From Allosphingosinicella sp. (GTDB lineage Bacteria; Pseudomonadota; Alphaproteobacteria; Sphingomonadales; Sphingomonadaceae): a DNA stretch of 64,000 bases. Where the stretch lies: NCBI GenBank assembly GCA_035645215.1, contig DASQND010000028.1, forward strand, positions 9,241-73,240. The letters are read 5' to 3'. The translations under genes were made by a program, and so were the position numbers. The first letter of the stretch is position 1; every line of letters begins with the position of its first letter. The notes beneath the pieces were generated by a model. That model had not been told where the DNA came from. It saw only the letters and a list, made by a program, of their open reading frames with translations, and ran no database searches. Below, in pieces: positions 769 to 63,980 of the stretch.

Positions 769-2937
769 TCAATCGTCCTCCTCTTCGCGGTCGTCATCCC
801 AGATGCTTTCGGGGCGGCCCTCGGCATCACCTTCTTCGATCCCTGCGCCGCGGTCGGCGACGGGATAGTCGACGTCCTCAGTCGCGTGTTCGTCGTCGAT
901 CTGGCCCCGATGCTTGAGGCGCGTCTGGGGCGGTGCCTTCGGAACGTCCTTGCGGTCTGCGCCGCTGGGCTCCATCGGCAGGACCGGCGACAGCAGCCTG
1001 TCGTAGGCCGCTGAGCGGCCCAGTGCGCCGGCCGCTCGTCTCATCTCGTCGTGCTCCAGAAGGGCGACGCCCGCGGCTCTCGCGCGGAACGCGCGGTCGG
1101 GCAGGGTATCCTCGATCTCCTGCAGTAGCTGGTTGCGCTTTCTAAGCCGGTCCACCGGCTTCGTACCGCCGCCCTTCCCGGCGCGCAGCATGTGGTGGTA
1201 TTCATGGTGCTCGTACCGGGTGAGGCCAGCACTGTAGTCGGGATGGGTCGAATGAAGCCGGTGATATTCGCGGCTTTCTGGATCGTAGAGGTCGATGTAA
1301 TCGATATCGGAATCCCAGACACGGGCCGTCAGTTCGCATCGGCCGGTGTCTCGCAGCCGGTCGGCGAAGGGCGCTCGCCGGAGGTTCGCGTCGAGCATCT
1401 TCTCGACGCCGCGCTCGTTGAAGCGGTAACGGAGGTTGTCGAACTCGACGCCGTTGGTGGTGAGGACCACGGAGACGGTTCTCGAGAGATGCCGTTCAAT
1501 CTCGCCGGGCGGCATCCCACGGGGTTTGCGCACCGCCAGCCCCTCCAGCAGCACCTCCATTGGCGAACGCCAGCCCAGCCACTTCTTTGGACGTTCGTTC
1601 CACGCGATCCTCGCCGCTTGGATCATGAAGGCGAACTGCGCACGTGTGACATCCGGACTGGTCAGCGGATCGTAGCGGGGATCCCGCGGCGCTCCCGGGC
1701 CCAGGATCCGCCCCGACAGCCTCTTCACCACACCGTGTAGGAAGCGGTGGAAGCGTTCGTGCTTAGCCTTTGCATCACTGTGGTACGCCCTCGGAAGCTC
1801 GACGTACGAAACGATGTTTACCAAGCCGGGTACCATCGCCGGCGGCAGCAGCGCTTTTTCGTTGTCGGGGTGCAGCTGGCTGGGGACGCTGTAGCATTCC
1901 GCCCGCCGCGGATCTTCCGCAAGCTGCTCGTCTGTGAGCCGTGGAGGCGTCATCAGTCCGAGGAGCGCGCGCTCGGTCGCCTCCGGGCGGAACGGTCCTG
2001 TGAAGACGGGGCCCTCGAACACGAACGAGCTCTTCCAGTCCATGGCGAACACGCCCTTCATCCTTGCCGCCGGGATCTTCCAGTCGTCGGAGAAGGTGCA
2101 CACGTGCTTGAAGACGACTCCGTCGAGCGTCACGCGCTCCATCACGTGCTCAGCGCCGACCGGCTCGCCATTGGCGCCGTAGTAGCGATCGGCCTCGAAA
2201 TCCCCGTGCCGATCGGCGTAGCTTACCCGGTTCTCCAGTGAGTTAATGCGACGGCGCACGCACTCGAGGCTGGGGGCACTCTTGCCGATGTCGGTCGACC
2301 CAGCGGCGGCGAGTTCGTCCCACGCGCCGACCACCCGGGCCGCGGCGTCGGTCTTGAAGGGGTCCCCGTCCTTGCTCCAGTAGAGCGCGGCCATACGGTG
2401 GACGATCAGGTCCATGCGTTCGGTGAGCTGTGACTCCCCCTTCTGCCGCCCGGCTGTCGTCACTAGATTTCCGATGCGGCGGTGGGGATCCTCGATGAGC
2501 GTGGCGATCCAGCGCAGCAGTGCCCGCCACTTCGGGCGAGTGCCGGCCGCCGGTGCCGGCTCGCGCGCAAGGAATTCCTTCGCACCCCGTTCGCTGTGTG
2601 CGATGCCCGCGTTGATCGCTGCCGTTGCCCACTCGTGTTTCCAAAGCGACTTTGGGTCGCGGGCCTTGCATGCTGCGCGGTCAAGCCCGAGGAACTGACC
2701 TCTAGCCCCGCCAAGCATTGCATATGGGTCGTCCGCGTCGATCAGCCGACCTGCGCGGTGCTCCGCAAGCAACCAGTCAATGTCCGGGGGAACGGATATT
2801 CCTGCCGGCCCCAGCGTCAGCAGGACCGGTTCGCCCGCCTGGTCAACTAGGTCCACCGTCCAGCCCCGCGTGCCCAGCAGCTTGAGCGGCCGGCCCTCGT
2901 GCAGAAGCCTCATGCCGGCTGGCAGGCCGAAGCTCAC
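769..2937 (-). CDS. tnsB: TnsB/MuA-like DDE transposase
   Basis: 722 aa. DDE candidates VTLDG, HPDNE, KAKHERFHRFL; Mu-type C-terminus VLTTNGVEFDNLRYR; overlaps the tnsA stop. Confidence 0.85.
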   Translation of the reverse strand: MSFGLPAGMRLLHEGRPLKLLGTRGWTVDLVDQAGEPVLLTLGPAGISVPPDIDWLLAEHRAGRLIDADDPYAMLGGARGQFLGLDRAACKARDPKSLWKHEWATAAINAGIAHSERGAKEFLAREPAPAAGTRPKWRALLRWIATLIEDPHRRIGNLVTTAGRQKGESQLTERMDLIVHRMAALYWSKDGDPFKTDAAARVVGAWDELAAAGSTDIGKSAPSLECVRRRINSLENRVSYADRHGDFEADRYYGANGEPVGAEHVMERVTLDGVVFKHVCTFSDDWKIPAARMKGVFAMDWKSSFVFEGPVFTGPFRPEATERALLGLMTPPRLTDEQLAEDPRRAECYSVPSQLHPDNEKALLPPAMVPGLVNIVSYVELPRAYHSDAKAKHERFHRFLHGVVKRLSGRILGPGAPRDPRYDPLTSPDVTRAQFAFMIQAARIAWNERPKKWLGWRSPMEVLLEGLAVRKPRGMPPGEIERHLSRTVSVVLTTNGVEFDNLRYRFNERGVEKMLDANLRRAPFADRLRDTGRCELTARVWDSDIDYIDLYDPESREYHRLHSTHPDYSAGLTRYEHHEYHHMLRAGKGGGTKPVDRLRKRNQLLQEIEDTLPDRAFRARAAGVALLEHDEMRRAAGALGRSAAYDRLLSPVLPMEPSGADRKDVPKAPPQTRLKHRGQIDDEHATEDVDYPVADRGAGIEEGDAEGRPESIWDDDREEEDD

Positions 2938-3836
2938 TTCTCGGACTCCGGCACTGCGTGATGGGTGAGGAATGCACGCAGGCGCCCCGGGACCCGCTCC
3001 GGCGGCAGGTCGACGGGGGTGTCGGGCATTTGCGGACGCGTGGGGTCGATCCGAACGAGCCGGCGCACGCTCATAGCGTTGAGCTTGGCGGAGGCGTCGC
3101 GGACGGGGCCGCCGATGGCTTCAAGGACCACTCCGAGGGGCGCCGCGCCGCCCTCGCTCATCACCGACTCGCGAACGGCCGCCACGTCGACGATGCGGTC
3201 GAACGTCGTGTTCCGATCGTCGAAAACGTCCTTCAAAGTCCGGTGAAGCATCGTTCCGACCAGAGCCGGCGCGTCCTCGCGGCGCAGCCTCGCGCCGTGG
3301 AGCGCGAGCACCTCCTCCGCCTCGTCCAGCAGATCCGCTGTGTCGGCCTCCTCGAAGTACGCTTGGTCACCCTTGTACTCCGTGAACACGAGCGAGTGAT
3401 CCTCGAGCTCAAAACCGCCGTCGAGGGTGATGTGCCGAGTCCGGCCATGATCCCGGCGCCAGACCACCCGTAGGGGCTGGAACTCGAGATCCAGCCGAGA
3501 GGTGAGTGTCTCTGCCTCGATCCAGGCGGCGCACTCTGCGGCGCCCTCGTGGTAGACCGCGCGCCCGGACTTGACGCTGAACCCTGCGGTCGTCGTAAAC
3601 CACGCGCCGTACTTGAAGTTGATGCGCAGCTGCCCGGTGTCAGGCGCCGCCTCCAGCTTCGGATCGCGCCAACGCTCGGCGACTGATCGTCGCGTCCGCG
3701 TGGTCTGGCGGGGGGCCAACCTCGGACGCGAGCGCGGTTCGCGCCGTGGACGGACACGCCGAACCTCGAGCGGGTGCGGGATTCTGATGTTTGGCGGGGC
3801 GTCATCTTCTTCCCTGGAGGCGGCTGCGTCGGTCAT
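2934..3836 (-). CDS. tnsA: TnsA-like endonuclease
   Basis: GFSVKSGRAVYHE...E...FQP...TLDG...TEYK matches the TnsA N-terminal PD-(D/E)XK pattern; first gene of a tnsABC order. Confidence 0.75.
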   Translation of the reverse strand: MTDAAASREEDDAPPNIRIPHPLEVRRVRPRREPRSRPRLAPRQTTRTRRSVAERWRDPKLEAAPDTGQLRINFKYGAWFTTTAGFSVKSGRAVYHEGAAECAAWIEAETLTSRLDLEFQPLRVVWRRDHGRTRHITLDGGFELEDHSLVFTEYKGDQAYFEEADTADLLDEAEEVLALHGARLRREDAPALVGTMLHRTLKDVFDDRNTTFDRIVDVAAVRESVMSEGGAAPLGVVLEAIGGPVRDASAKLNAMSVRRLVRIDPTRPQMPDTPVDLPPERVPGRLRAFLTHHAVPESEK

Positions 3837-4328
3837 TTCTGGCGTCCTGTGGGACGCCGTCTGGCGCCATTGTTCGGGATGCTCGACCGCCCGCGGCTTG
3901 GGCGGCCAAAGGCGGACTACTTTTGTACGGAGGCTGTCATCACGCTGTTTTGAGCCTCAATTTGACAGCGACGGTCCGAGCCTCTGGCAGCCGGAGCAGC
4001 GCTTTGAACATCGCGCCTTTTGGCGCAGCTCAGGCGGTTGCCGCGGCGGAACAGCCGGCCGGTGAGGGTCACGTCGAGAGCGAACAGGTCGACGCGCGAG
4101 GTGCTGACGTGGTCCCGAACGGCGGCGGTGGGACCCTCTAAAAGAAGGGACCTACGGACCGTCTTCAATTTGAGCTTCATCTTAGCACCTTCGGAAGATC
4201 CACGGTCGGCGGCACCCGCAGCCGCGATGGTGACGTACGGAAGGGGCGACGTCGCTTCCACGTGTCTCGAAGTCGCTGCGGCTGTATGCTAGCCTTGCTT
4301 AATCCGGTGTTTTCATCATCCATCAGAC

Positions 4329-4418
4329 ATCTCCAGATAACTCTCGACGCACCAGATGGGGGTAAAATCCCATCGCGTCAATCGAAAGTTATCTGGAGAT
4401 CGAAAATAGTTTGGAGAT
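4329..4418. repeat. Three ~20 bp related sites (ATCTCCAGATAACTYTCGA-like): one forward, two tandem reverse
   Basis: 4329-4348 atctccagataactctcgac; 4381-4400 reverse complement atctccagataactttcgat; 4399-4418 reverse complement atctccaaactattttcgat. Includes a perfect 13 bp inverted repeat at 4329-4341/4388-4400. Confidence 0.7.
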
Positions 4419-4445: not shown

Positions 4446-5519
4446 ATGCCGGCGCAGCGCAAAACCAAGCCCGAAGGCCTAGCAGGATATCTCGGGGACC
4501 CGCTTCCTGAGCAGGAAGGAGTCATGTGGGCGGCGCTAACCACCGAGCAGCGCGCGAAGGCGTTGCAGCGCATGACGGCGTTGCAGCGCTGGATAGACTC
4601 GGACGGCGCTATCGACGTGAAGCAGGCCGCTGCCGACGCAGGGGTCAGCGTTACGCGCATGTACGAGATGGGGAAGGCGTGGCGCGAAAAACGTTCGCTG
4701 ACCTCCCTCGGGGCTTTCGCTGGTGCTCCTAAGACGCGAGTAGGAAAGCACGATGCGCTTTTGAGAAAAGCGTTGCCGTCGGTGGTGGCAGCCGATCCGG
4801 AAGGCAGCGTACGTAAGCTTGCTCTCGCCCTTGAGACTGCGTGCGGGATCCCATCGGGCGATATGCCGAGTCACAACACGCTTCGCCGCTACGTCGAGGA
4901 CGAGTTGCGCCGGCTTGAGCAGAAGGCAATGGCCGGCGACGAAGTGATGCTGGATTGTGCGGCATGCACCTTGACGCCGACTGATACGGATCTTCTGACG
5001 CTGTTCGCCATCCTCGACAGGTGGACCCAAGTGGTGCTTGGCGCCAGCTTTGGGGATCCAGATGATAGCCGCGGCGGATATGCGCTCGCCGCCCGTGATG
5101 CGATCAGGCGTTTAGAGGCTGGCCAATTCGCTGACCTACCCTGGGTCGAGCGGATGGCGCGATCCGAGGTTGTAGTCGGTTTCGATCAGGACCGGTGGTC
5201 CGATGTCCGCGCGCGGTTCGCTAAAGAAGGGATAGCGGCGCCCGTCGAGCCTTCAACAAGAGAGAAGCGGTTCGGACGGTATCTACGATCTGTCACGGGC
5301 CTGCGGATAGGCTCTATCGTCGTTTTGCCCAGACACACCGGTAACATCGCGGCGGGCGACCTGACCCGGACGCTGTCGCCGACGGCCGATCAGATGGAGC
5401 GGTTGAGAGTGGAAGTCGACGACTACAATTTGAGCAGGACCGCGGCGGTGTCGAACCTGTCGAGGAGTACACCGCCGGCAGATTTCCACCGCATGCTTGC
5501 GCTGCTCGTCAGGGCCTAG
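4446..5519 (+). CDS. Degenerate transposase-like protein (HTH plus rve-like remnant)
   Basis: HTH (AAADAGVSVTRMYEMGKAW), PSHNTLRRY, VMLDC...ILDRWTQVVLG, terminal VDDYN; catalytic Glu region reads RFGRYL. Confidence 0.6.
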   Translation: MPAQRKTKPEGLAGYLGDPLPEQEGVMWAALTTEQRAKALQRMTALQRWIDSDGAIDVKQAAADAGVSVTRMYEMGKAWREKRSLTSLGAFAGAPKTRVGKHDALLRKALPSVVAADPEGSVRKLALALETACGIPSGDMPSHNTLRRYVEDELRRLEQKAMAGDEVMLDCAACTLTPTDTDLLTLFAILDRWTQVVLGASFGDPDDSRGGYALAARDAIRRLEAGQFADLPWVERMARSEVVVGFDQDRWSDVRARFAKEGIAAPVEPSTREKRFGRYLRSVTGLRIGSIVVLPRHTGNIAAGDLTRTLSPTADQMERLRVEVDDYNLSRTAAVSNLSRSTPPADFHRMLALLVRA

Positions 5520-6577
5520 ATGTCCCAGTTTACGATCGGCGGTGGTGCACCACGTGCGGCATTGTGAGCAGTGAGTTGCTCTGAGATTACTCGACGCGCG
5601 TCCGCGGGCCTGAGAGCGGCGTCCATGCGCGCTCGCAACATTCGCTTCGGAGCGATTGCACGGCTGAGCTGGTAGATGAGTTCGATCGTTCCAAAACCGC
5701 GACCGAGGATTCGGGCGGTAGCGGTGCGGGCTGCGCTTGGGAGAACCGGGACGTGCGCCGGGAGATTGTCACGACCGAGCTTCTTTGCAATGTCCCCGTC
5801 CACAACGATCCGGCGCCCCCCTGGTGACCGCGCCGTGGCTGTGGCGATGGAGTTGGAGCTTTCGCGCTCCTGTTCCATCTCGGCTCCGATCACCGCGCCA
5901 TTCTCCCCATCCACCAGGAGTTCGATCAACGGAAAAACGATATCGCCATCGTGCTCCACTGGAAGTTTCGCGTGGCAGCGCGAAATCACGAGATCGTTGC
6001 TCCCCTGCTTCTGGGCGGCGTCACGGCGGGAATCCATGACCATATTCCAGATCGTGCTCTTCGACGGCGCCTTCACGTTCAAAGAGGCGCATCTCGCCTC
6101 GACGGCTCGCACTGCCTCGACGTGAGGAACGTCAGGTCCGAGCGCTGCCACCACCTCTCGCGCTGCATCCCTAGAGACGGTGGGCAGAGTGCGCGCACCA
6201 CCGGTTCGCGGCCTTCCACGGGCAGCGCCTGCGCCGGCAATAGCTGCGGCGTTACCATGTTCCTTCCATGCCCGAACAAGCGCCAAGAATTGGTTGACGC
6301 TCAGATCGAGCGAGCGCGCGTGGCGCCGTCGATCGCGATCAGTTGGCTCAGAAATCAGGACGTAAGTTTTTACGGCAGCGACACGTCGCCGGACCTCGCC
6401 AATCCGTAGCGGATCGACCCCCGTTATATCGACGTCATCAAGGCTGCGATCGACTGAGCTGGATGCGACGCTTGGCAATGTTGAGCAGGGCAGCGCAAGG
6501 TGCTCTCCGATTTCGGCGGCGAGGGTCCGCGCCTCCGCGGCGCGCGGGTCCATGCCCCAGCAGTCGGGTTCATGCAT
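5516..6577 (-). CDS. Degenerate transposase-like protein, paralogue of 6777-7826
   Basis: GVDPLRIGEVRRRV, LSVNQFLALVRAWKEH, PSKSTIW; RBS gggagag before the ATG. Confidence 0.6.
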   Translation of the reverse strand: MHEPDCWGMDPRAAEARTLAAEIGEHLALPCSTLPSVASSSVDRSLDDVDITGVDPLRIGEVRRRVAAVKTYVLISEPTDRDRRRHARSLDLSVNQFLALVRAWKEHGNAAAIAGAGAARGRPRTGGARTLPTVSRDAAREVVAALGPDVPHVEAVRAVEARCASLNVKAPSKSTIWNMVMDSRRDAAQKQGSNDLVISRCHAKLPVEHDGDIVFPLIELLVDGENGAVIGAEMEQERESSNSIATATARSPGGRRIVVDGDIAKKLGRDNLPAHVPVLPSAARTATARILGRGFGTIELIYQLSRAIAPKRMLRARMDAALRPADARRVISEQLTAHNAARGAPPPIVNWDI

Positions 6578-6776
6578 ATTTCTCTCCCAAAAAAAAGGAT
6601 TATCGCGTCACTCACAAGGAGTGCCGATGAGCCTGGCACTCTCATAGGCCCGTCCACGGACGCGGGCGTTTGCGTGAGGATGCGCATCTCGACCGCGTCG
6701 GACCGCCGCGACTTCGGTTCGCGGGTTCAACTTCTTCGCGACCTAATCCAGCAGCCGATTTCTAACGATTGAGGCG

Positions 6777-7826
6777 TCAGGTATTGATCGCCCAGTCGTC
6801 CTTCGTCGGGTGAGGCTTATAGTCGGTCACGCTGCTCGTCTCAGAGGATAGCTCATCCCCCTCGGCGTCAGCGTCCAATACGTCGAAAGCCGGCATCACC
6901 AAGCCGCTGGCGGCATTGTTGAAGGCGATGGCCTCCCGGATAGCGGCCTTCGCCTCTTCGGGCGTGATCCGTTTGTCTTGGCGCAGCATGACAAGCTTCG
7001 TATGTGGCCGTGCGAGAGCTCGTTGGTACAGGGCTGGGAGCTGGCCTAATCGCCCGCCGAAGGCTCGCGAAAGCTCGCGCTGCACCGATCGCTTATGCCA
7101 CCGGAGTCCACCTAGGCCTCCCGCTGCCAGCACATCACGCGACGCTCGGCGGTCATCTGCCTCGAGACGAAGGGGCCGCGCTTCGGCGCCGAGTGAGCGA
7201 AGTGTGAGCGTCTCCGAGACGAGGTCTGCGACCGCGGGCGGACGGCTGTCATCCACCGAGATTCTATGCGCCAGGATGATGCGTTCGGGTAGCGCCACGA
7301 CGGCAAGCAAGGTTGGCATGGCCGTGCCCTCGCCCAAGTTTGGATCAGTGGTGACGGGAAGATGGAACCACATTCGCCCGACAACGATCCGCTTCGGACC
7401 GCTCTCCCAGGGGCGAGCGGCACGCTCTTTGCGTATTTGTGTCCAGATTGTTGGGCGCGACGGTGGGGTAACGCCTTCCGCCTGACAACGTTGCTCTATC
7501 GTGGGGGCAACAGAGCAGAGTTCGGCGCTGGCTCCCGCGTTTGCGATCTCCTCTCTCATTATTTCCAATGCACGCTGCGCTATTCCAGAGTGGCGGACGG
7601 AACGACCGCGCGGACCGTCGATCAAGAGGGCAGGATCACGATGTTCTCGCCACGCCCGAGCCAGGCGGTGAAATTGCCACCGGCTGATCCCAAGGCCGGC
7701 TGCGATGCGCGTAGCGTCAGCTGTGGTGGGGCTGGGCAGATTAAAATATTTGTCGATGGCCTCAATGCGCCGGCGCGCCTCCGGTACGCGCAGCGGGTTG
7801 ATGCCCGAGAAGTCGGGTTTGAGCAT
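6777..7826 (-). CDS. Degenerate transposase-like protein
   Basis: Start moved to ATG 7826 (RBS aaggag). GINPLRVPEARRRI, ISRWQFHRLARAWREH, PSRPTIW align with 5516-6577. Confidence 0.65.
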   Translation of the reverse strand: MLKPDFSGINPLRVPEARRRIEAIDKYFNLPSPTTADATRIAAGLGISRWQFHRLARAWREHRDPALLIDGPRGRSVRHSGIAQRALEIMREEIANAGASAELCSVAPTIEQRCQAEGVTPPSRPTIWTQIRKERAARPWESGPKRIVVGRMWFHLPVTTDPNLGEGTAMPTLLAVVALPERIILAHRISVDDSRPPAVADLVSETLTLRSLGAEARPLRLEADDRRASRDVLAAGGLGGLRWHKRSVQRELSRAFGGRLGQLPALYQRALARPHTKLVMLRQDKRITPEEAKAAIREAIAFNNAASGLVMPAFDVLDADAEGDELSSETSSVTDYKPHPTKDDWAINT

Positions 7827-8241: not shown

Positions 8242-8355
8242 GTTAGGAACCTGCGGTTAGACAGGCGCGAACGCCTTTAGCCTGGTGGCCTGGACATGCG
8301 CGTCCGCCACCCGGTCGACCAAAGTCTGACCGGCTCTAACCGACAAGGTTCCTAC
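8242..8355. repeat. Imperfect ~20 bp inverted repeat (TCTAACCG..GGTTCCTA)
   Basis: 8242-8261 reverse complement tctaaccgcaggttcctaac versus 8335-8355 tctaaccgacaaggttcctac. Confidence 0.4.
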
Positions 8356-11491: not shown

Positions 11492-11573
11492 GTTCGTCAC
11501 CTCACTAGAAGAGATGCCCCGCGCTCCGGCTCCCGGAAGGGAACTGCGAGCGCGGGGTCAGGGAGCTTGCGAC

Positions 11574-12458
11574 ATGAGCGATGGAAAACCCAATGGGCAT
11601 CCGCCGCCAGCGGTCATGGAAGACTGCCGGATCCTACGCCGCGTCGATGTCCGCGAGGGGCAGACAGGCGAGGGCAGTCAAGCCGACGCTCCGTTCGTCG
11701 GGATTGCCGTCGACGTTGAGACGACGGGGCTCCTCCATTCTGAAGACCGCATCATCGAACTCGCGCTGAGGCGATTTCGGTATGACCGCAACGGGGTCAT
11801 CACGAACATTGATATTCCGTATGCCTGGCTTGAAGATCCAGGGAGAGCCATCCCCCCGGAAATATCACTGCTAACGGGACTCACCGAAGCTGACGTGAAA
11901 GGGCAATCGATAGATGATGATGAGGCGGTGCGCCTTCTGGGCACCGGAACGCTGATCATTGCCCATCATTCCCGGTTTGACCGCCCCTGGATTGAAGCGC
12001 GCCTGCCCGATGCTGCAGGTCTCGCCTGGGCGTGCACGATGGAGGAGATCGACTGGCGCGCCAGAGGCCTCGAAGGCGGCAAGCTAGGATTTCTCCTGAT
12101 GCAGGCAGGATGGTTCCACGAGGGCCATCGTGCCGGCGCCGACGTGGATGCCGTTATTCAGCTGCTGCAACATCGGTTCGATGATGGCCGCACTGCGCTA
12201 TCTGTTTTGACGGAGAAGGCGGCGCAGCCAAGCTGGATTGTCCGCGCGGTCGGCGCAGACTTCAGCGTCAAGGATCTACTGCGCGGTCGCGGCTACCGCT
12301 GGGATGCAGACCGCAAGGTCTGGTGGCGCGAGGTGGCCGACGAGGATCGCACGCGCGAGGAGTTCTGGTTGGCGGCGAACGTCTACGCAGTGCACGCGAA
12401 TCCGAAGGCGCTGGGCCCCAGTATCGAAGAAGTATCTGCCTTCACGAGGTTCCAATGA
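11574..12458 (+). CDS. DEDDh 3'-5' exonuclease (DnaQ/epsilon-like)
   Basis: VDVETTGL, AHHSRFD, HRAGADVD motifs. Confidence 0.9.
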   Translation: MSDGKPNGHPPPAVMEDCRILRRVDVREGQTGEGSQADAPFVGIAVDVETTGLLHSEDRIIELALRRFRYDRNGVITNIDIPYAWLEDPGRAIPPEISLLTGLTEADVKGQSIDDDEAVRLLGTGTLIIAHHSRFDRPWIEARLPDAAGLAWACTMEEIDWRARGLEGGKLGFLLMQAGWFHEGHRAGADVDAVIQLLQHRFDDGRTALSVLTEKAAQPSWIVRAVGADFSVKDLLRGRGYRWDADRKVWWREVADEDRTREEFWLAANVYAVHANPKALGPSIEEVSAFTRFQ

Positions 12459-13188: not shown

Positions 13189-13396
13189 TGAGCGTAGCCC
13201 TAGAAATCGTCAGCCTAAGCGAAGCGTGCTGTCATGCAGGATCCTCTGCACCTTTGCTTTGCACTCAGCGTCGGTAGTGCAGCATGCCGTACGCCCGTGT
13301 GTCGGTCGGATCGAATGATCATGCCCGTTGTCGCAGCAATATGCTGCCAGTACCACGTATCGGCCGTGCAAGAGGCTTTTGGTTGACGAGGGAAGC

Positions 13397-16045
13397 ATGC
13401 AGCGAAAAACATACGTAACGCACGGTCGGCTGGCGGCGCGAGAGGTCCGACTCCGAGCGGCGGCAGAGCGAGCGCATGGCACGCAGGTCATGTCCTTCGA
13501 GCAGCTCGTCGCCCGCCTCGCTGGCGGCTTCTGCGACCCGATCGACACCGAGACTCTGCGCCAGACGATCAGGGCAGTCCTTCCTGAAACGGCCTTGGGG
13601 GAACTGGACGGCATTAAGGAACTTCCGGGGTTCGCAGGAGCCGCGGCCGAGACCTTGCGCAAGGCATGGCGGAGCGGCCTTTGTCTTTCGGAGATCAAGG
13701 TTTACCATCCGCGCCTCGCCGCCCTGGAAGCGCTCGAGCGCGCGGTCTTTGAGCGGCTTCCTCCGGCGGCAAAGGTGCCGGCGCAGCTCGTTCAGCTCGC
13801 GCGCGAGCGCCTTGCGCATGCGCCAGCCATCCTCGGCAGCGTGGACATCGTAGGGATCAGCGAGTTGTCGCCTTGCTGGCGCGATCTTCTCGGAGAGCTT
13901 GCCCAAGTTGTGCCCGTCAACTGGCATGCCGGCCCTCGGCCGGTTCCGGAATGGCTCGCCGGCACTGCCGTGAACGTCACGACGGCAGAAAGTACGAGCC
14001 CTGCGGTATCGGCGGTCAGCGCGGCCACCGAGGTGCATGAAGCGGTGGAGGCCCTCCGCTGGGCGAGGGAGCTCGTCGCTTCCGGCCGCGCGCGTCCGGA
14101 AGAGATTGGAATCGCCGCGACATCGCCGGCCGCATACGACGACACGCTGCTCGCGCTCCGCTCCGACGCCAATCTCGACCTCGCCTTTGTGCACGGTATT
14201 CCGATTACCGCCACGCGCGACGGCCAGTGCGCCGCCGCGCTCGCGGAAGCGGTGTTGCGGGGGCCGTCGCAGGCTCGTCTGCGGCGACTGGCGCAGCTGG
14301 CCACTTCGCCCGGCACGCTGCTGGGGCGTCTTCCCGAGGGCTGGCTGCGAGTGCTGCCTCCGGATGCGCCCCTTGCGACCCGAGCAGCGTGGGAGCGGCT
14401 GCTGCGCCGCCTTCGCCCTGCCGACTGGCCGGATGGGAAGGACCACGGCTCGTTGCTGCGGGAGGCGGTGGAGCGCCTGCTTGCCGGGCCTGATGCCGCG
14501 GCTGATGCGGGCGAGGCTCTGCTTCGCGGGGGCGCACTTCGAATCTGGAGGAAGGCCTTGCTGATCGGCCATCCGGCGGCCTTGGATTCGACCATCGCGA
14601 CGCTGAGGCAGGACGATGGCCTTGAGGCTTGCAGGAGCGTTGCCTGGATGCCTGCCGCTGCGCTTGCCGCGTCTCCGCGCCCGTTCGTGCGGCTGCTGGG
14701 CCTTACTTCATCCGGGTGGCCCCGGCGGATTTCCGAAGATCGGCTGCTGCCGGACCATATTGTGCCGTCGGCTCAGCTTGAGCCGCTGACGGTCGCAATG
14801 GCGGACCGTCGCGACTACGAAACGATCCTTGCAACGACCGTCGGTGAGATCGTGCTTTCGCGTGCCCGCCGCGATGCGGACGGACGGCTCCTGGGGCGCA
14901 GCCCGATGACCAGGGGGCAGGGGGAGACGTATCTTCGGCGCAACCGCACGCCAGCACATGTGATGAGCGAGACGGATCGGCTCGTCGCGCGTCCCGAGGA
15001 GTTTGCGGGCAGTGAGATCGCCCGCTCGGTTGCCGGTTGCTGGAGCGACTGGCAATCCCGCGCGCTGACGGGGCATGACGGACTCGTCCGTGCGGAACAC
15101 CCGGCACTGCTCGCGGCGCTGGCGCGGGTGCAGTCCGCCAATTCGCTGGCGCTACTTCTGCGCAATCCGCTGGGCTTCGCTTGGCGGTACGCCTTGCGCA
15201 TTGAGACCAGCGAAGCGCCCGTGGAACCTATCGTGCTTGGTCCGCTCCAGACGGGCACACTGGTGCACGAGCTTCTGGATGAGACGGTGCGTGCGTTGGA
15301 GGCGGCTGAAGGACTTGCGACCGCCTCGCCGGAGCGCGTGGCGCACGAGCTCCGGGAGGCCTGCGGCCGAGTAGCCCGTCGCTGGGAGGAAGAGCGGCCA
15401 ACGCCCCCAGCGCTCGTTTGGCGTCAGACGCTGGCGGACCTTTCCGGCGTGGCCGCTGCCGCTTTGGCGGCAGCGCAGGCGCCGCTTGAGGGGCAGCGCT
15501 CCTTTACCGAAGTGCCTTTCGGGGGCCAGGAGCCTCAACACGATGCTGCTGCTCCATGGGACCCGTCGTTGCCCGTCGAGGTACCGAACACGCCCTTTCG
15601 AGTGCGAGGGTCAATCGACCGCCTGGACCTTTCCGCATCCGGCAGGGAAGCCAGGGTCATCGACTACAAGACTGGCCGATTGCCCCGCGATGAGGTCGTG
15701 CTCGGCGGCGGCAAGGAGCTCCAGCGGTGCCTTTACGCCTATGCCGTCGGCGTTCTGATTGGCGAAGACGTGCAGGTGGAGGCCGCTCTCGATTATGTCC
15801 GCGCGGGAGAACGACGGCCACTGCCCGACCCTCCGGCTACACTTGCCGTCCTCGCAGAGCATTTACGCGCCGCCTATGAGAGCTTGTCTGCCGGGCGGGC
15901 GCTGCCGGGGCCGGACGCCGCTGGTGACTATGACGATCTCGCCTTCGCGCTGCCGGCGAATGCGGCCAACGGTTATTGCAGCCGTAAGGCCACCGCGGTG
16001 GAGGCTGCTCTCGGACCGGCCGCTCTGATCTGGGAGGAACAATGA
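13397..16045 (+). CDS. AddB-like protein: inactive helicase fold plus PD-(D/E)XK nuclease
   Basis: RGSIDRLD...VIDYKTG...ELQRCLY nuclease motifs; no Walker A; start 13397 after a gaggg RBS. Confidence 0.8.
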   Translation: MQRKTYVTHGRLAAREVRLRAAAERAHGTQVMSFEQLVARLAGGFCDPIDTETLRQTIRAVLPETALGELDGIKELPGFAGAAAETLRKAWRSGLCLSEIKVYHPRLAALEALERAVFERLPPAAKVPAQLVQLARERLAHAPAILGSVDIVGISELSPCWRDLLGELAQVVPVNWHAGPRPVPEWLAGTAVNVTTAESTSPAVSAVSAATEVHEAVEALRWARELVASGRARPEEIGIAATSPAAYDDTLLALRSDANLDLAFVHGIPITATRDGQCAAALAEAVLRGPSQARLRRLAQLATSPGTLLGRLPEGWLRVLPPDAPLATRAAWERLLRRLRPADWPDGKDHGSLLREAVERLLAGPDAAADAGEALLRGGALRIWRKALLIGHPAALDSTIATLRQDDGLEACRSVAWMPAAALAASPRPFVRLLGLTSSGWPRRISEDRLLPDHIVPSAQLEPLTVAMADRRDYETILATTVGEIVLSRARRDADGRLLGRSPMTRGQGETYLRRNRTPAHVMSETDRLVARPEEFAGSEIARSVAGCWSDWQSRALTGHDGLVRAEHPALLAALARVQSANSLALLLRNPLGFAWRYALRIETSEAPVEPIVLGPLQTGTLVHELLDETVRALEAAEGLATASPERVAHELREACGRVARRWEEERPTPPALVWRQTLADLSGVAAAALAAAQAPLEGQRSFTEVPFGGQEPQHDAAAPWDPSLPVEVPNTPFRVRGSIDRLDLSASGREARVIDYKTGRLPRDEVVLGGGKELQRCLYAYAVGVLIGEDVQVEAALDYVRAGERRPLPDPPATLAVLAEHLRAAYESLSAGRALPGPDAAGDYDDLAFALPANAANGYCSRKATAVEAALGPAALIWEEQ

Positions 16046-56010: not shown

Positions 56011-56313
56011 GATAGATTACTCGACGTTGGAGCCGGGATCAGTGTCCTAGCTCAGGACCGCTTGGTAACGGCAGCAAATCCATTCCCCAATGACAAGGGG
56101 AAACGGCAGCTAGGCTGAACTGAGGGGTATTAGGGGTCTTAAGCTCTTAACCCGCCGTTCCGCTGGTCCGCAATCGGCCAGAAGCAGTCGATAGCTGCCA
56201 TCCGGCTTCGTCGCAATCATCGCCATGTCTCTTCGCAGCGAGCGTTAATCTGGTGCTGCCACCAATTCCCTAATCCACGTGAACGTAATCATAGGCTGTC
56301 TCAATATCAGTGT

Positions 56314-56434
56314 CAGGTTGTGCCAGTCTCATGGAGACCAGCGAAATGCGTCGCTAGATATCCGCGCAGCCGTTCACTCAGCACTGCCAATGTCACCATA
56401 GGTCGGCTTAATGCCAATTGCAGGTTGTGCCAGT
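56314..56434. repeat. 14-bp direct repeat CAGGTTGTGCCAGT
   Basis: Exact copies at 56314-56327 and 56421-56434, with further TGCCA partial copies between them. Confidence 0.6.
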
Positions 56435-56514
56435 GCCAGGGACAGCGCGGCCGCTCGGCTGCTTTTTAATCAAGTGCAAAAAATTTGAAGCCTTTATCGC
56501 AAGCGGCAAATACC

Positions 56515-63014: not shown

Positions 63015-63980
63015 TCACCGCGCGGCTGGAGGGATCTGATAGCCGAAATCGAGGTGTCGAGCAGCGAGTCGCAGAACTAGATCCAGGCCGCAGATCACGA
63101 AGGTGGCTCCGCGGAGGTTGCCGTAGCTCCTGAGGGCATGCGTCTCGGCATGTCGATTGGGGACGTTGCCACGGGCGGCGGCATGGGTTTCGTTCCTGCA
63201 TGAAGCGAACAGCTGGTCTTCGATGAATTCGTACATCGACATTGTCTCGATCGGATCCTCACGGATCATCGGTGTTTCCAGAAGCAAGCGCAGCAGGCCG
63301 TCCACTGCGGCTTTCGAACTCCGCTTCGTCACCATCGTGCGCGCAACTGCCTCGAACTCCGGCATCAGGACCCGGACGACCGTCAGGTAGCTGCCGGTGA
63401 CGTACGCAGCACACGCCTCAGTCACTGCGGTCCGAACCGACGCCGAGACCCGGTCCACGTTATACCCAAGGATCCGCCGTTCGATTTCGGCGGCGACTGC
63501 CGGCCGGTTGCGTTCAAACCACGCCTCGGCCATCGCACCGACGTCGGCGCCTTCGTCGAGCAGCGACATCTGGAAGCCGTCTTCCATGATCGCGATACCG
63601 GGCCATTCTGCCTTTCGCAGTTCCCACGCCGCCTCCTGCGCGACCGAGACTGGATCGATGATGATGCCGAAGCCGGGTTCCGGCGTCAAATCCCAAGGTC
63701 GCGGATGGACGAACGGCCAGATTCCGGTGCCTTTGTGCGGAACTCTTCGTCGGAAGGGATCGAACATGTCTCTGCTCCTGACGTCCCGGTTGAACGTGTG
63801 AGGCTCAGCGTCTGCTGGCATGAGCTCGCAACGGGCCGCGTTGTCTCGTCGGCTAATCAAATGGCGGCGGGCGATGTCAATGTCAGGTTGCCCGAGTGTC
63901 AGTGTAAGGTTGTGCCAATGGCTACAGCTTCGGAAGCGTGACGCCGCGCTGGCCCATATATTTGCCGGCGCGGTCGGCAT
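63015..63980 (-). CDS. Hypothetical protein with a C-terminal HEPN-like RxxxxH motif; start uncertain
   Basis: PNRHAETH near the C-terminus in a helical region. Confidence 0.55.
   Translation of the reverse strand: MPTAPANIWASAASRFRSCSHWHNLTLTLGQPDIDIARRHLISRRDNAARCELMPADAEPHTFNRDVRSRDMFDPFRRRVPHKGTGIWPFVHPRPWDLTPEPGFGIIIDPVSVAQEAAWELRKAEWPGIAIMEDGFQMSLLDEGADVGAMAEAWFERNRPAVAAEIERRILGYNVDRVSASVRTAVTEACAAYVTGSYLTVVRVLMPEFEAVARTMVTKRSSKAAVDGLLRLLLETPMIREDPIETMSMYEFIEDQLFASCRNETHAAARGNVPNRHAETHALRSYGNLRGATFVICGLDLVLRLAARHLDFGYQIPPAAR

Follow-up and report, generated by a model that had tools for sequence, protein, structure and literature searches.

The control of Tn7-like transposons, relatives of the CRISPR-guided tools known as CRISPR-associated transposons (CASTs), is poorly understood. 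To our knowledge, the only regulators described from inside Tn7-like transposons are ordinary transcription factors, namely CvkR and Xre proteins, and of these the Xre regulators control I-F3 CASTs. Non-catalytic transposase derivatives that damp transposition are represented by the Tn5 inhibitor protein and by InsA of IS1. CvkR is a regulator of the MerR type that is found inside type V-K CASTs (PMC9938897). The repressor c of phage Mu is homologous to the transposase and divergent from the transposase operon (PMC3820752). In Tn6022-like elements an inactivated tyrosine recombinase, TnsF, is used as a target selector (PMC10293859). The present analysis concerns a stretch of 64,000 nucleotides (the window) from Allosphingosinicella sp., a member of the Sphingomonadaceae, which corresponds to positions 9241-73240 of contig DASQND010000028.1 (C28) in the 3.47-Mb assembly GCA_035645215.1. 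Three related genes in this window, here called A, B and C, stand beside the tnsA-tnsB-tnsC-tniQ operon of a Tn7-like transposon, and they most likely make up a DNA-binding control module of transposase descent, a role that is not described for Tn7-like elements in the literature searched.

Element-encoded, transposase-derived control proteins already exist as a kind. A full-text literature search returned no account in which dead TnsB paralogues figure as accessory genes of Tn7-like elements; the type V CAST systems described as 'dual TnsB' are split genes.

Results

The three genes are intact open reading frames (ORFs) of about 350 amino acids (aa), at the coordinates originally predicted for them. 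Paralogue A (357 aa; 4446-5519, plus strand) is divergent from the tns operon and is separated from tnsA by 609 bp, paralogue B (353 aa; 5516-6577, minus strand) is convergent with A, and paralogue C (349 aa; 6777-7826, minus strand) lies in an open frame that continues to 8012. The TAG stop codons of A and B overlap inside the palindrome CTAG at 5516-5519. The overlap between A-type and B/C-type stops is also 4 bp in the comparison loci L027, L029 and L032, and it is longer in L026 and L031; such an arrangement suggests coupled 3' ends or antisense interference.

The paralogy of the three proteins is real, with B and C close to each other and A more distant. More specifically, B and C align over their full length (BLASTP 3e-24, 27% identity), and their family profiles match at 100% probability (hhalign, E 1.5e-42, 294 columns). 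A matches C by BLASTP in the N-terminal part only (2e-5) and B at 0.028, while the A-family and C-family profiles align over 287 columns with 93% probability (E 3.2e-7). Residues 1-49 of B (6430-6577) hold an extra N-terminal copy of the segment 'PDxxG(I/M)(D/N)P...EAR' that opens C-type proteins, and this copy is also present in the closest B homologue; in the L041 and L042 proteins the first helical module is duplicated in tandem. None of the three has a match in Pfam or NCBIfam, including rve and Mu-transpos_C even at E <=1, and none has a match in PADLOC at E <=0.01. PHROGs yielded nothing usable for A, B or C, the only hint being PHROG 310 'transposase' (0.0088) against the N-terminal part of A.

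AlphaFold2 models were built for C on 68 homologues and for A on 35, with predicted local distance difference test (pLDDT) values of 87.8 and 88.4, respectively. Both models consist of two helical DNA-binding domains, an RNase H-like core with the pattern strand-strand-strand-helix-strand-helix, and a long closing helix, so that the two helical motifs and the rve-like strands noticed in the original prediction are confirmed at high confidence. For A and C alike, Foldseek ranks TnsB-DNA complexes (ShCAST, Tn7) and the MuA transpososome highest, at a probability of 1.0 over 340-400 columns. The best PDB matches of the A model are TnsB (1.1e-8) and MuA (9e-7), those of the C model are the MuA transpososome (1.6e-7) and TnsB (6e-7), and the best viral structural match is a Mu-like phage transposase. 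The template-modelling scores are low and the overall root-mean-square deviation is >20 Å, which probably reflects a movable arrangement of the domains in the models; core-only chains align at 7-9 Å. Comparison with TnsB and MuA, which had been put forward as the structural check, thus recovered both the RNase H-like fold and the domain order of these transposases. The fold of B is presumed to be the same from its profile match to C (E 1.5e-42).

TnsB reads its end sites of about 20-30 bp with the two corresponding helical domains. The domain order of A, B and C, including a closing helix that ends in '...YN/HN', is that of MuA and of the TnsB proteins of Tn7, ShCAST and I-F3 CAST, but A, B and C are approximately half as long and are without the N-terminal domain, the beta-barrel and the part that interacts with TnsC or MuB. 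The models of A and C stop soon after the closing core helix, leaving no beta-barrel and no C-terminal TnsC-binding tail. Sequence comparison did not recover this relationship: BLASTP of A, B and C against the neighbouring TnsB was not significant, hhalign against the TnsB family profile gave non-significant probabilities of 12% and 2%, and the C family profile found only noise among PDB sequences. With no significant sequence similarity to TnsB, the case for a relationship is made by the fold, by the order of the domains and by where the motifs fall, and these suggest that A, B and C descend from a TnsB/MuA-type transposase and have been shortened and become catalytically dead.

The catalytic positions were mapped by secondary-structure position and motif alignment, without coordinate superposition. 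Where the neighbouring TnsB reads HERFHRFL around its catalytic Glu (E394), A reads GRYLRS, B reads ARILGR and C reads QRELSR, and this comparison, first made on the single sequences, holds at the level of the families, in which the residues concerned are invariant or at least 90% conserved. Among 35 A-type sequences, conservation is at least 90% for the first Asp (D170, in 'LDCAAC'), the second Asp (D247) is invariant, and the Glu position is a Gly (residue 277, 'RFG277RY') in 35/35. Strand 1 of B reads Ser-Arg-Cys, which places Ser at the first Asp, and its Glu position is Ala288, at least 90% conserved in 22 sequences. In the 68 C-type sequences strand 1 carries G150-R151, with Gly at the first Asp and R151 invariant; D225 is likewise invariant, and the Glu position is Q249, at least 90% conserved. 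The Arg that had been assigned to the first Asp position in two of the proteins is therefore a conserved residue, but it lies one residue after that position. The full D, D, E triad is absent from A, B and C alike, and B and C are without two of the three carboxylates. Loss of the catalytic Glu abolishes the activity of MuA and TnsB, and no catalysis would be expected of A, B or C from their sequences. As they lack the triad, the C-terminal domains and sequence similarity, these proteins are not members of the transposases proper.

The distribution of these genes was surveyed in 401 Sphingomonadales species genomes. An A-type gene is present in 20 of the 401, at 23 places; for 22 of them a TnsB-family gene is found at a distance of 1-4 kb. 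The co-occurrence with tnsABC that had been proposed for checking is thus almost obligate, and it extends to tniQ. In every examined locus that keeps an intact A-type gene together with tnsA, the two are divergent, and the A-type gene is usually convergent with its B/C-type partner. The common plan, judged on loci with enough flank and an intact element, is cargo, [B/C-type ->][<- A-type], [tnsA tnsB tnsC tniQ ->], end; it was seen in L001, L021, L022, L026, L027, L029, L031 and L032, and in several genome loci. A third, weak paralogue accompanies the pair in L026 and L027, as in the window. Decayed remnants are found in L003, L024, L025 and L028, the elements of G215 and G298 contain an A-type gene only, and the element of genome G277 contains no paralogue. 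Related elements occupy different chromosomal places, and their cargo varies by locus (metal efflux, copper resistance, Dnd, defence genes). Since the cargo varies while the position of A, B and C stays fixed, these genes behave as part of the transposon and not as cargo. They are fixed accessory genes in a Sphingomonadaceae group of Tn7-like transposons.

In all, there are about 130 homologues at 90% clustering, in families of 70 C-type, 34 A-type and 25 B-type members at 40-86% identity; the few that bear a name or an organism are labelled 'hypothetical' and belong to Sphingomonadales. The ratio of nonsynonymous to synonymous substitution rates (dN/dS), calculated according to Nei-Gojobori on the least saturated pairs, is 0.11-0.14 for A, 0.25 for B and 0.16 for C (dS 0.44). 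These values, which answer another proposed check, indicate purifying selection like that on tnsB (0.14), tnsC (0.14) and tniQ (0.18). None of the 23 A-type places in the surveyed genomes has an internal stop, although two copies look split. The view that these are retained genes and not decayed pseudogenes is borne out by both results.

Three copies of a 20-bp site with the consensus ATCTCCARAyAAyTTTCGAT are located between A and the tns operon and together form a candidate operator. Site 1 (ATCTCCAGATAACTCTCGAC, 4329-4348, plus strand) is inverted relative to the other two. Site 2 (ATCTCCAGATAACTTTCGAT on the minus strand, 4381-4400), recognised through an inverted-repeat find, a matrix and conservation, stands in tandem with site 3 (ATCTCCAAACTATTTTCGAT on the minus strand, 4399-4418), which ends 27 bp before the start codon of A. 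Five loci (the window, L026, L027, L028 and L029) have these three sites in an identical arrangement, with a spacer of 32-34 bp (32 bp in the window), not conserved in sequence, between site 1 and the tandem pair; the A proteins of L026-L029 are 57-81% identical to that of the window. Scanned with a position weight matrix, the 3.47-Mb genome yields these three sites and no more, and no others were found in the L026-L029 sequence examined, tniQ-side ends included. The 20-bp sites and the TnsB end sites show no sequence relationship. In A2-type loci the corresponding position is taken by other triple repeats, and some further lineages have two-copy repeats upstream of the A-type gene. No conserved repeats were found upstream of B/C-type genes, and the repeats at 8242-8355, which the original prediction had singled out along with this region, are not conserved in other loci. 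A sigma-70 scan returned one promoter-like site upstream of B.

One weaker match to the operator matrix (ATCACCAGTCGATTTACGAG, C28:7094, minus strand, 12.8 bits) falls within the last 100 bp of the transposon, past the tniQ stop and before the terminal TnsB site. It is the sole match of >=12 bits in the 95-kb contig beyond the operator, against a background of about 1 per 150 kb, and because it has no counterpart in other loci it is probably due to chance.

The region between A and tnsA also holds a possible leader ORF of 48 codons ('MDDEN...TWKRRR...VDLPKV', 4178-4324, minus strand) that points to tnsA and starts 5 bp from site 1. Similar ORFs occur in L028 and L029, and tblastx scores the two strands of the region about alike, which leaves coding unproven. 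The ORF may encode a leader peptide, may be what is left of an earlier 5' end of tnsA, or may be no more than conserved DNA. As read from untranslated sequence, the MDDE start in L026 may be the 5' end of tnsA itself, the gene call there beginning tnsA downstream.

The identity matrices of the A-type and B/C-type proteins agree with each other, A1 going with B and A2 with C in the same sub-groups, and both strongly disagree with the TnsB matrix. B homologues accordingly adjoin A1-type homologues. L031 and L032 are 70% identical in A and 67% in C, and only 16% identical in TnsB; in reciprocal fashion, L028 and L021 are 65% identical in TnsB while their A1-type and A2-type proteins are 33% identical. 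The window shows both patterns, since its TnsB is 78% and its A only 33% identical to those of L001, and its A is 81% and its TnsB 17% identical to those of L028. Its TnsC is 27-37% identical to those of L026 and L027. In the window, therefore, an L001-like core stands together with an A1-B pair and its candidate operator, and with an orphan C, whose nearest relatives in L031 and L032 are paired with an A2 gene that is absent from the window. A and B/C co-evolve, and as a pair they have been exchanged among cores with TnsB proteins only about 16% identical. Module exchange across such different TnsB proteins argues against a contact co-adapted to TnsB or to its end sites and, less strongly, against a role in target selection.

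The surrounding transposon

The neighbouring operon runs on the minus strand. The 5' part of tnsC occupies 2-772 of the window (full gene of 333 aa, C28:9011-10012) and encodes an AAA+ regulator of the TniB type (Pfam TniB 2e-15 to 3e-15; AAA_22 3e-12). Downstream of it and outside the window is a TniQ-like gene of 636 aa (C28:7140-9050), whose protein has a weak match to Pfam TniQ (0.015) and whose syntenic homologue in L026 matches PF06527. The tnsB gene (769-2937) encodes a divergent, intact DDE transposase of 722 aa with D272, D358 and E394, and tnsA (2934-3836) encodes the endonuclease subunit with E97, D139 and E153-x-K155.

As single sequences, TnsB and TnsA have no match in Pfam or NCBIfam, and TnsB has only a marginal PDB match, to Tn6677 TnsB (E 0.25); an exhaustive search of 1.84 billion representatives recovered only 143 relatives of this TnsB. 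A family profile of 45 full-length relatives matches PseCAST/Tn6677 TnsB at about 1e-79, ShCAST TnsB at 3e-30 and Tn7 TnsB at 5e-24. D272, D358, K390 and E394 are invariant in 45/45 of these sequences, of which 16 match Pfam Mu-transpos_C and 13 match rve. For TnsA, the only PDB matches of the family profile are to the PseCAST TnsA domain (E 0.001); E97, D139 and K155 are invariant in 9 syntenic homologues, and E153 of the ExK motif is read in the window copy. The core is therefore an intact, very divergent Tn7-like tnsA-tnsB-tnsC-tniQ set whose TnsB is nearest to the I-F3 CAST type. That tnsABC is intact, as had been supposed, becomes apparent through profiles only (TnsB at about 1e-79, the TnsA residues, TniB). 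In some other loci tnsB is frameshifted or carries a single stop beside an intact A-type gene (L026 at 13220-15653, and the G191, G236 and G307 loci), and the A-type gene may outlive the transposase.

To the left of the window, C28 carries the rest of tnsC, the TniQ-like gene, a repeat of the repetitive extragenic palindromic (REP) type and chromosomal genes, putatively those of a flavin mononucleotide reductase and RNase R from the look of their translations. The near end of the transposon is a TnsB-type site at C28:7038-7068 (minus strand), 2.2 kb left of the window. It is formed by a 31-bp terminal block, CCAATGTCATTTTAAGGTGGTGCCAACGGTA, read on the reverse strand of these positions and common to L001, and it is situated just where similarity to the flank breaks off. 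A matrix derived from this block finds four more sites on the contig, all in the opposite orientation, at window positions 56301, 56408, 63871 and 63893, and a whole-genome scan with this position weight matrix returned no comparable TnsB-type end sites elsewhere. The layout is thus one site at the tniQ end and four inverted sites 58-66 kb away.

The two sites at 56301-56331 and 56408-56438 (plus strand) may represent an inner, nested or older end. The two overlapping sites at 63871-63923 (plus strand; 63871 and 63893, ...AAGGTTGTGCCAATGGCT) are the probable far end; site 63871 was left out of the building of the matrix, yet scores 22 bits. This assignment is provisional because no target-site duplication (5 bp in Tn7-like elements) was found at the proposed ends. 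With the end sites in opposite orientation and none elsewhere in the genome, the element is estimated at about 66 kb, from C28:7038 to window position 63923, and the window would be almost wholly the cargo of one Tn7-like transposon. A search for the empty site by way of the flanks of relatives was dropped, as the neighbours were too diverged and the query was swamped by the REP-like repeat.

This palindromic repeat of about 85 bp (CGTCATTGCGAGG...CCCGCTGGATTGCTTCG..., C28:6920-7005), which resembles REP or miniature inverted-repeat transposable elements, abuts the transposon end, occurs at >20 other places in the genome and is abundant in related genomes too. Among the cargo, 11514-12458 (plus strand) encodes an exonuclease of the DEDDh/RNase T type (Pfam RNase_T; PADLOC DEDDh 1.4e-20, PDC-S48) and 13328-16045 (plus strand) encodes a 905-aa protein with a PD-(D/E)XK nuclease domain; the two may form a defence pair. 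DNA identical or nearly identical to the window is present in biocrust and soil metagenome runs, and a sample of this sort may be the origin of the assembly.

Discussion

The TnsB-like DNA-reading architecture, the lost Glu, the selection, the divergent position, the private sites and the exchange between cores are best fitted by a control cassette. A portable, transposase-derived regulator cassette that binds the operator and controls the tns operon is the favoured explanation, to which we give about even credence. The A-type protein, probably with its co-evolving B/C-type partner, would bind the three 20-bp sites, and binding would set the transcription of tnsA-tnsB-tnsC-tniQ and of A itself; repression is assumed. 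Such a cassette would carry the regulator, the operator and the promoters in one piece, and this would explain its movement by recombination between very different cores. From the sequences we infer the binding of DNA at the 20-bp sites, the identity of the binder, the direction of regulation and any complex of A with B. Of the functions listed in the original prediction, that of a regulator is favoured by the triple operator and the exchange, and that of a defence module is disfavoured by the absence of a PADLOC match and the near-obligate Tn7-like linkage.

Several observations weigh against this explanation. The operator co-varies with A and with B/C alike, so that the binder is not singled out, and several other lineages have no clear repeats upstream of the A-type gene at the thresholds used. 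A simple sigma-70 scan of the spacer between A and tnsA found no promoter, and a search for RNA found the window sequence in DNA metagenome runs only. Elements with no paralogue, or with an A-type gene only, indicate that the module is not essential for the transposon. In the proteins the full RNase H-like core is kept and the old active site is best conserved (D170, D191, D247 and RFGRY in A); a whole core is more than a plain repressor needs, and a plain repressor does not explain two or three paralogues. The orphan C of the window, for which an A2-type operator was sought, has no recognisable operator, yet is under selection. It is the kept core, the two or three paralogues and the selected orphan C, all left unexplained, that hold confidence in a regulator near the midpoint. 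A more speculative possibility, rather unlikely as matters stand, is that A and B/C assemble on the inverted 20-bp sites as a non-cutting 'dead mini-transpososome' of paired-end-like form, acting as a portable switch or as a site like the Mu enhancer that times the production or activation of transposase, or else that they are a new target selector derived from a DDE enzyme.

Target selection deserves consideration in its own right. The dead transposases might provide a second targeting or adaptor pathway, similar to TnsE or TnsF, by reading mobile-element or plasmid DNA and recruiting TnsC. Tn7-like elements often have two targeting pathways and only a single TniQ is present in the operon here, the elements occupy different chromosomal places, and the whole core kept in A together with D170 and D247 suggests the binding of a DNA structure. 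TnsF offers a precedent for an inactivated recombinase as selector (PMC10293859). This proposal appears doubtful, however, as A, B and C lie outside the tns operon in divergent or convergent orientation, they are without a beta-barrel or a tail at the C terminus such as TnsB uses on TnsC, and their swapping between cores with very different TnsB proteins is hard to square with a specific TnsC contact; moreover, the only conserved sites that look cognate are at their own promoter region. The incongruence with TnsB (16% identity in TnsB with 70% in A) bears still more directly on the idea of a direct inhibitor or architectural subunit of the transpososome, acting at the TnsB end sites or mixed with TnsB, since it argues against a co-adapted interface or shared sites. 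Such proteins would be comparable to the Tn5 inhibitor protein or to the subunits of MuA/TnsB tetramers that take no part in catalysis. This idea draws on the TnsB domain order shared by A and C, on the phage Mu repressor, which binds the ends too (PMC3820752), and on the weak operator-like match of 12.8 bits at C28:7094, where the background is about 1 per 150 kb. There is nevertheless no sequence relationship between the operator motif and the TnsB-type end motif, no operator-type sites occur elsewhere in the L026-L029 sequence examined, including the tniQ-side ends, and such a role is decidedly improbable.

It is very unlikely that the genes are cargo or a selfish passenger, such as a defence or maintenance module that persists beside tnsA. 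The rest of the cargo is indeed rich in defence-type genes such as that for the DEDDh exonuclease, and exchange of the module between elements is independent of the core, but its position and orientation relative to tnsA are fixed while the cargo varies, 22 of the 23 places are near a TnsB-family gene, and there is no PADLOC match. The least credible alternative, and one to which hardly any weight is given, is that A is still an enzyme that, by itself or together with B, cuts or joins DNA by means of another third ligand. The conserved D170 and D247, and the RFGRY stretch around residue 277, which is the most conserved of the family, would be in keeping with such activity; against it, an invariant Gly replaces the canonical Glu, two of the three carboxylates are absent from B and C, the beta-barrel and C-terminal domains are missing, and the loss of Glu is known to abolish the activity of MuA and TnsB.

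With regard to known systems, the Mu repressor c is the nearest functional analogy to the proposed control cassette. It resembles A in being divergent from the transposase (ner-A-B) operon with multiple sites in between, a likeness of arrangement only. It shares with MuA only a small N-terminal DNA-binding domain, whereas A, B and C keep the whole DNA-binding region and a dead core, and it belongs to a phage, whereas two or three paralogous genes are found here in a non-phage element. The Tn5 inhibitor and InsA come from the transposase gene itself and use the same DNA sites, in contrast to A, B and C, which are separate, ancient and exchangeable and have sites of their own. CvkR and the Xre proteins likewise represent element-encoded control of Tn7-like transposition genes, but they belong to ordinary transcription-factor families, unlike the transposase-derived A, B and C, which are members of neither the Mu repressor nor the CvkR family. 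In the favoured model the cassette would fill the place that CvkR has in V-K CASTs.

TnsF is comparable in having lost catalysis and been kept as an accessory protein of Tn7-like elements; it derives from a different enzyme family, and A, B and C stand beside a candidate operator of their own without sign of a targeting role. The tnsF gene lies in the tns operon and A, B and C lie outside it. Rather than in or at the end of that operon, as in the TnsF/TnsE-like arrangement, they are located upstream of tnsA, across the promoter region.

If A, B and C are target selectors or parts of the transpososome, they would constitute a new mechanism for Tn7 biology. If they are regulators, they would form a self-contained control cassette open to testing and to reuse with Tn7 and CAST systems, and they would provide an example from bacteria of a transposase that its own transposon has domesticated.

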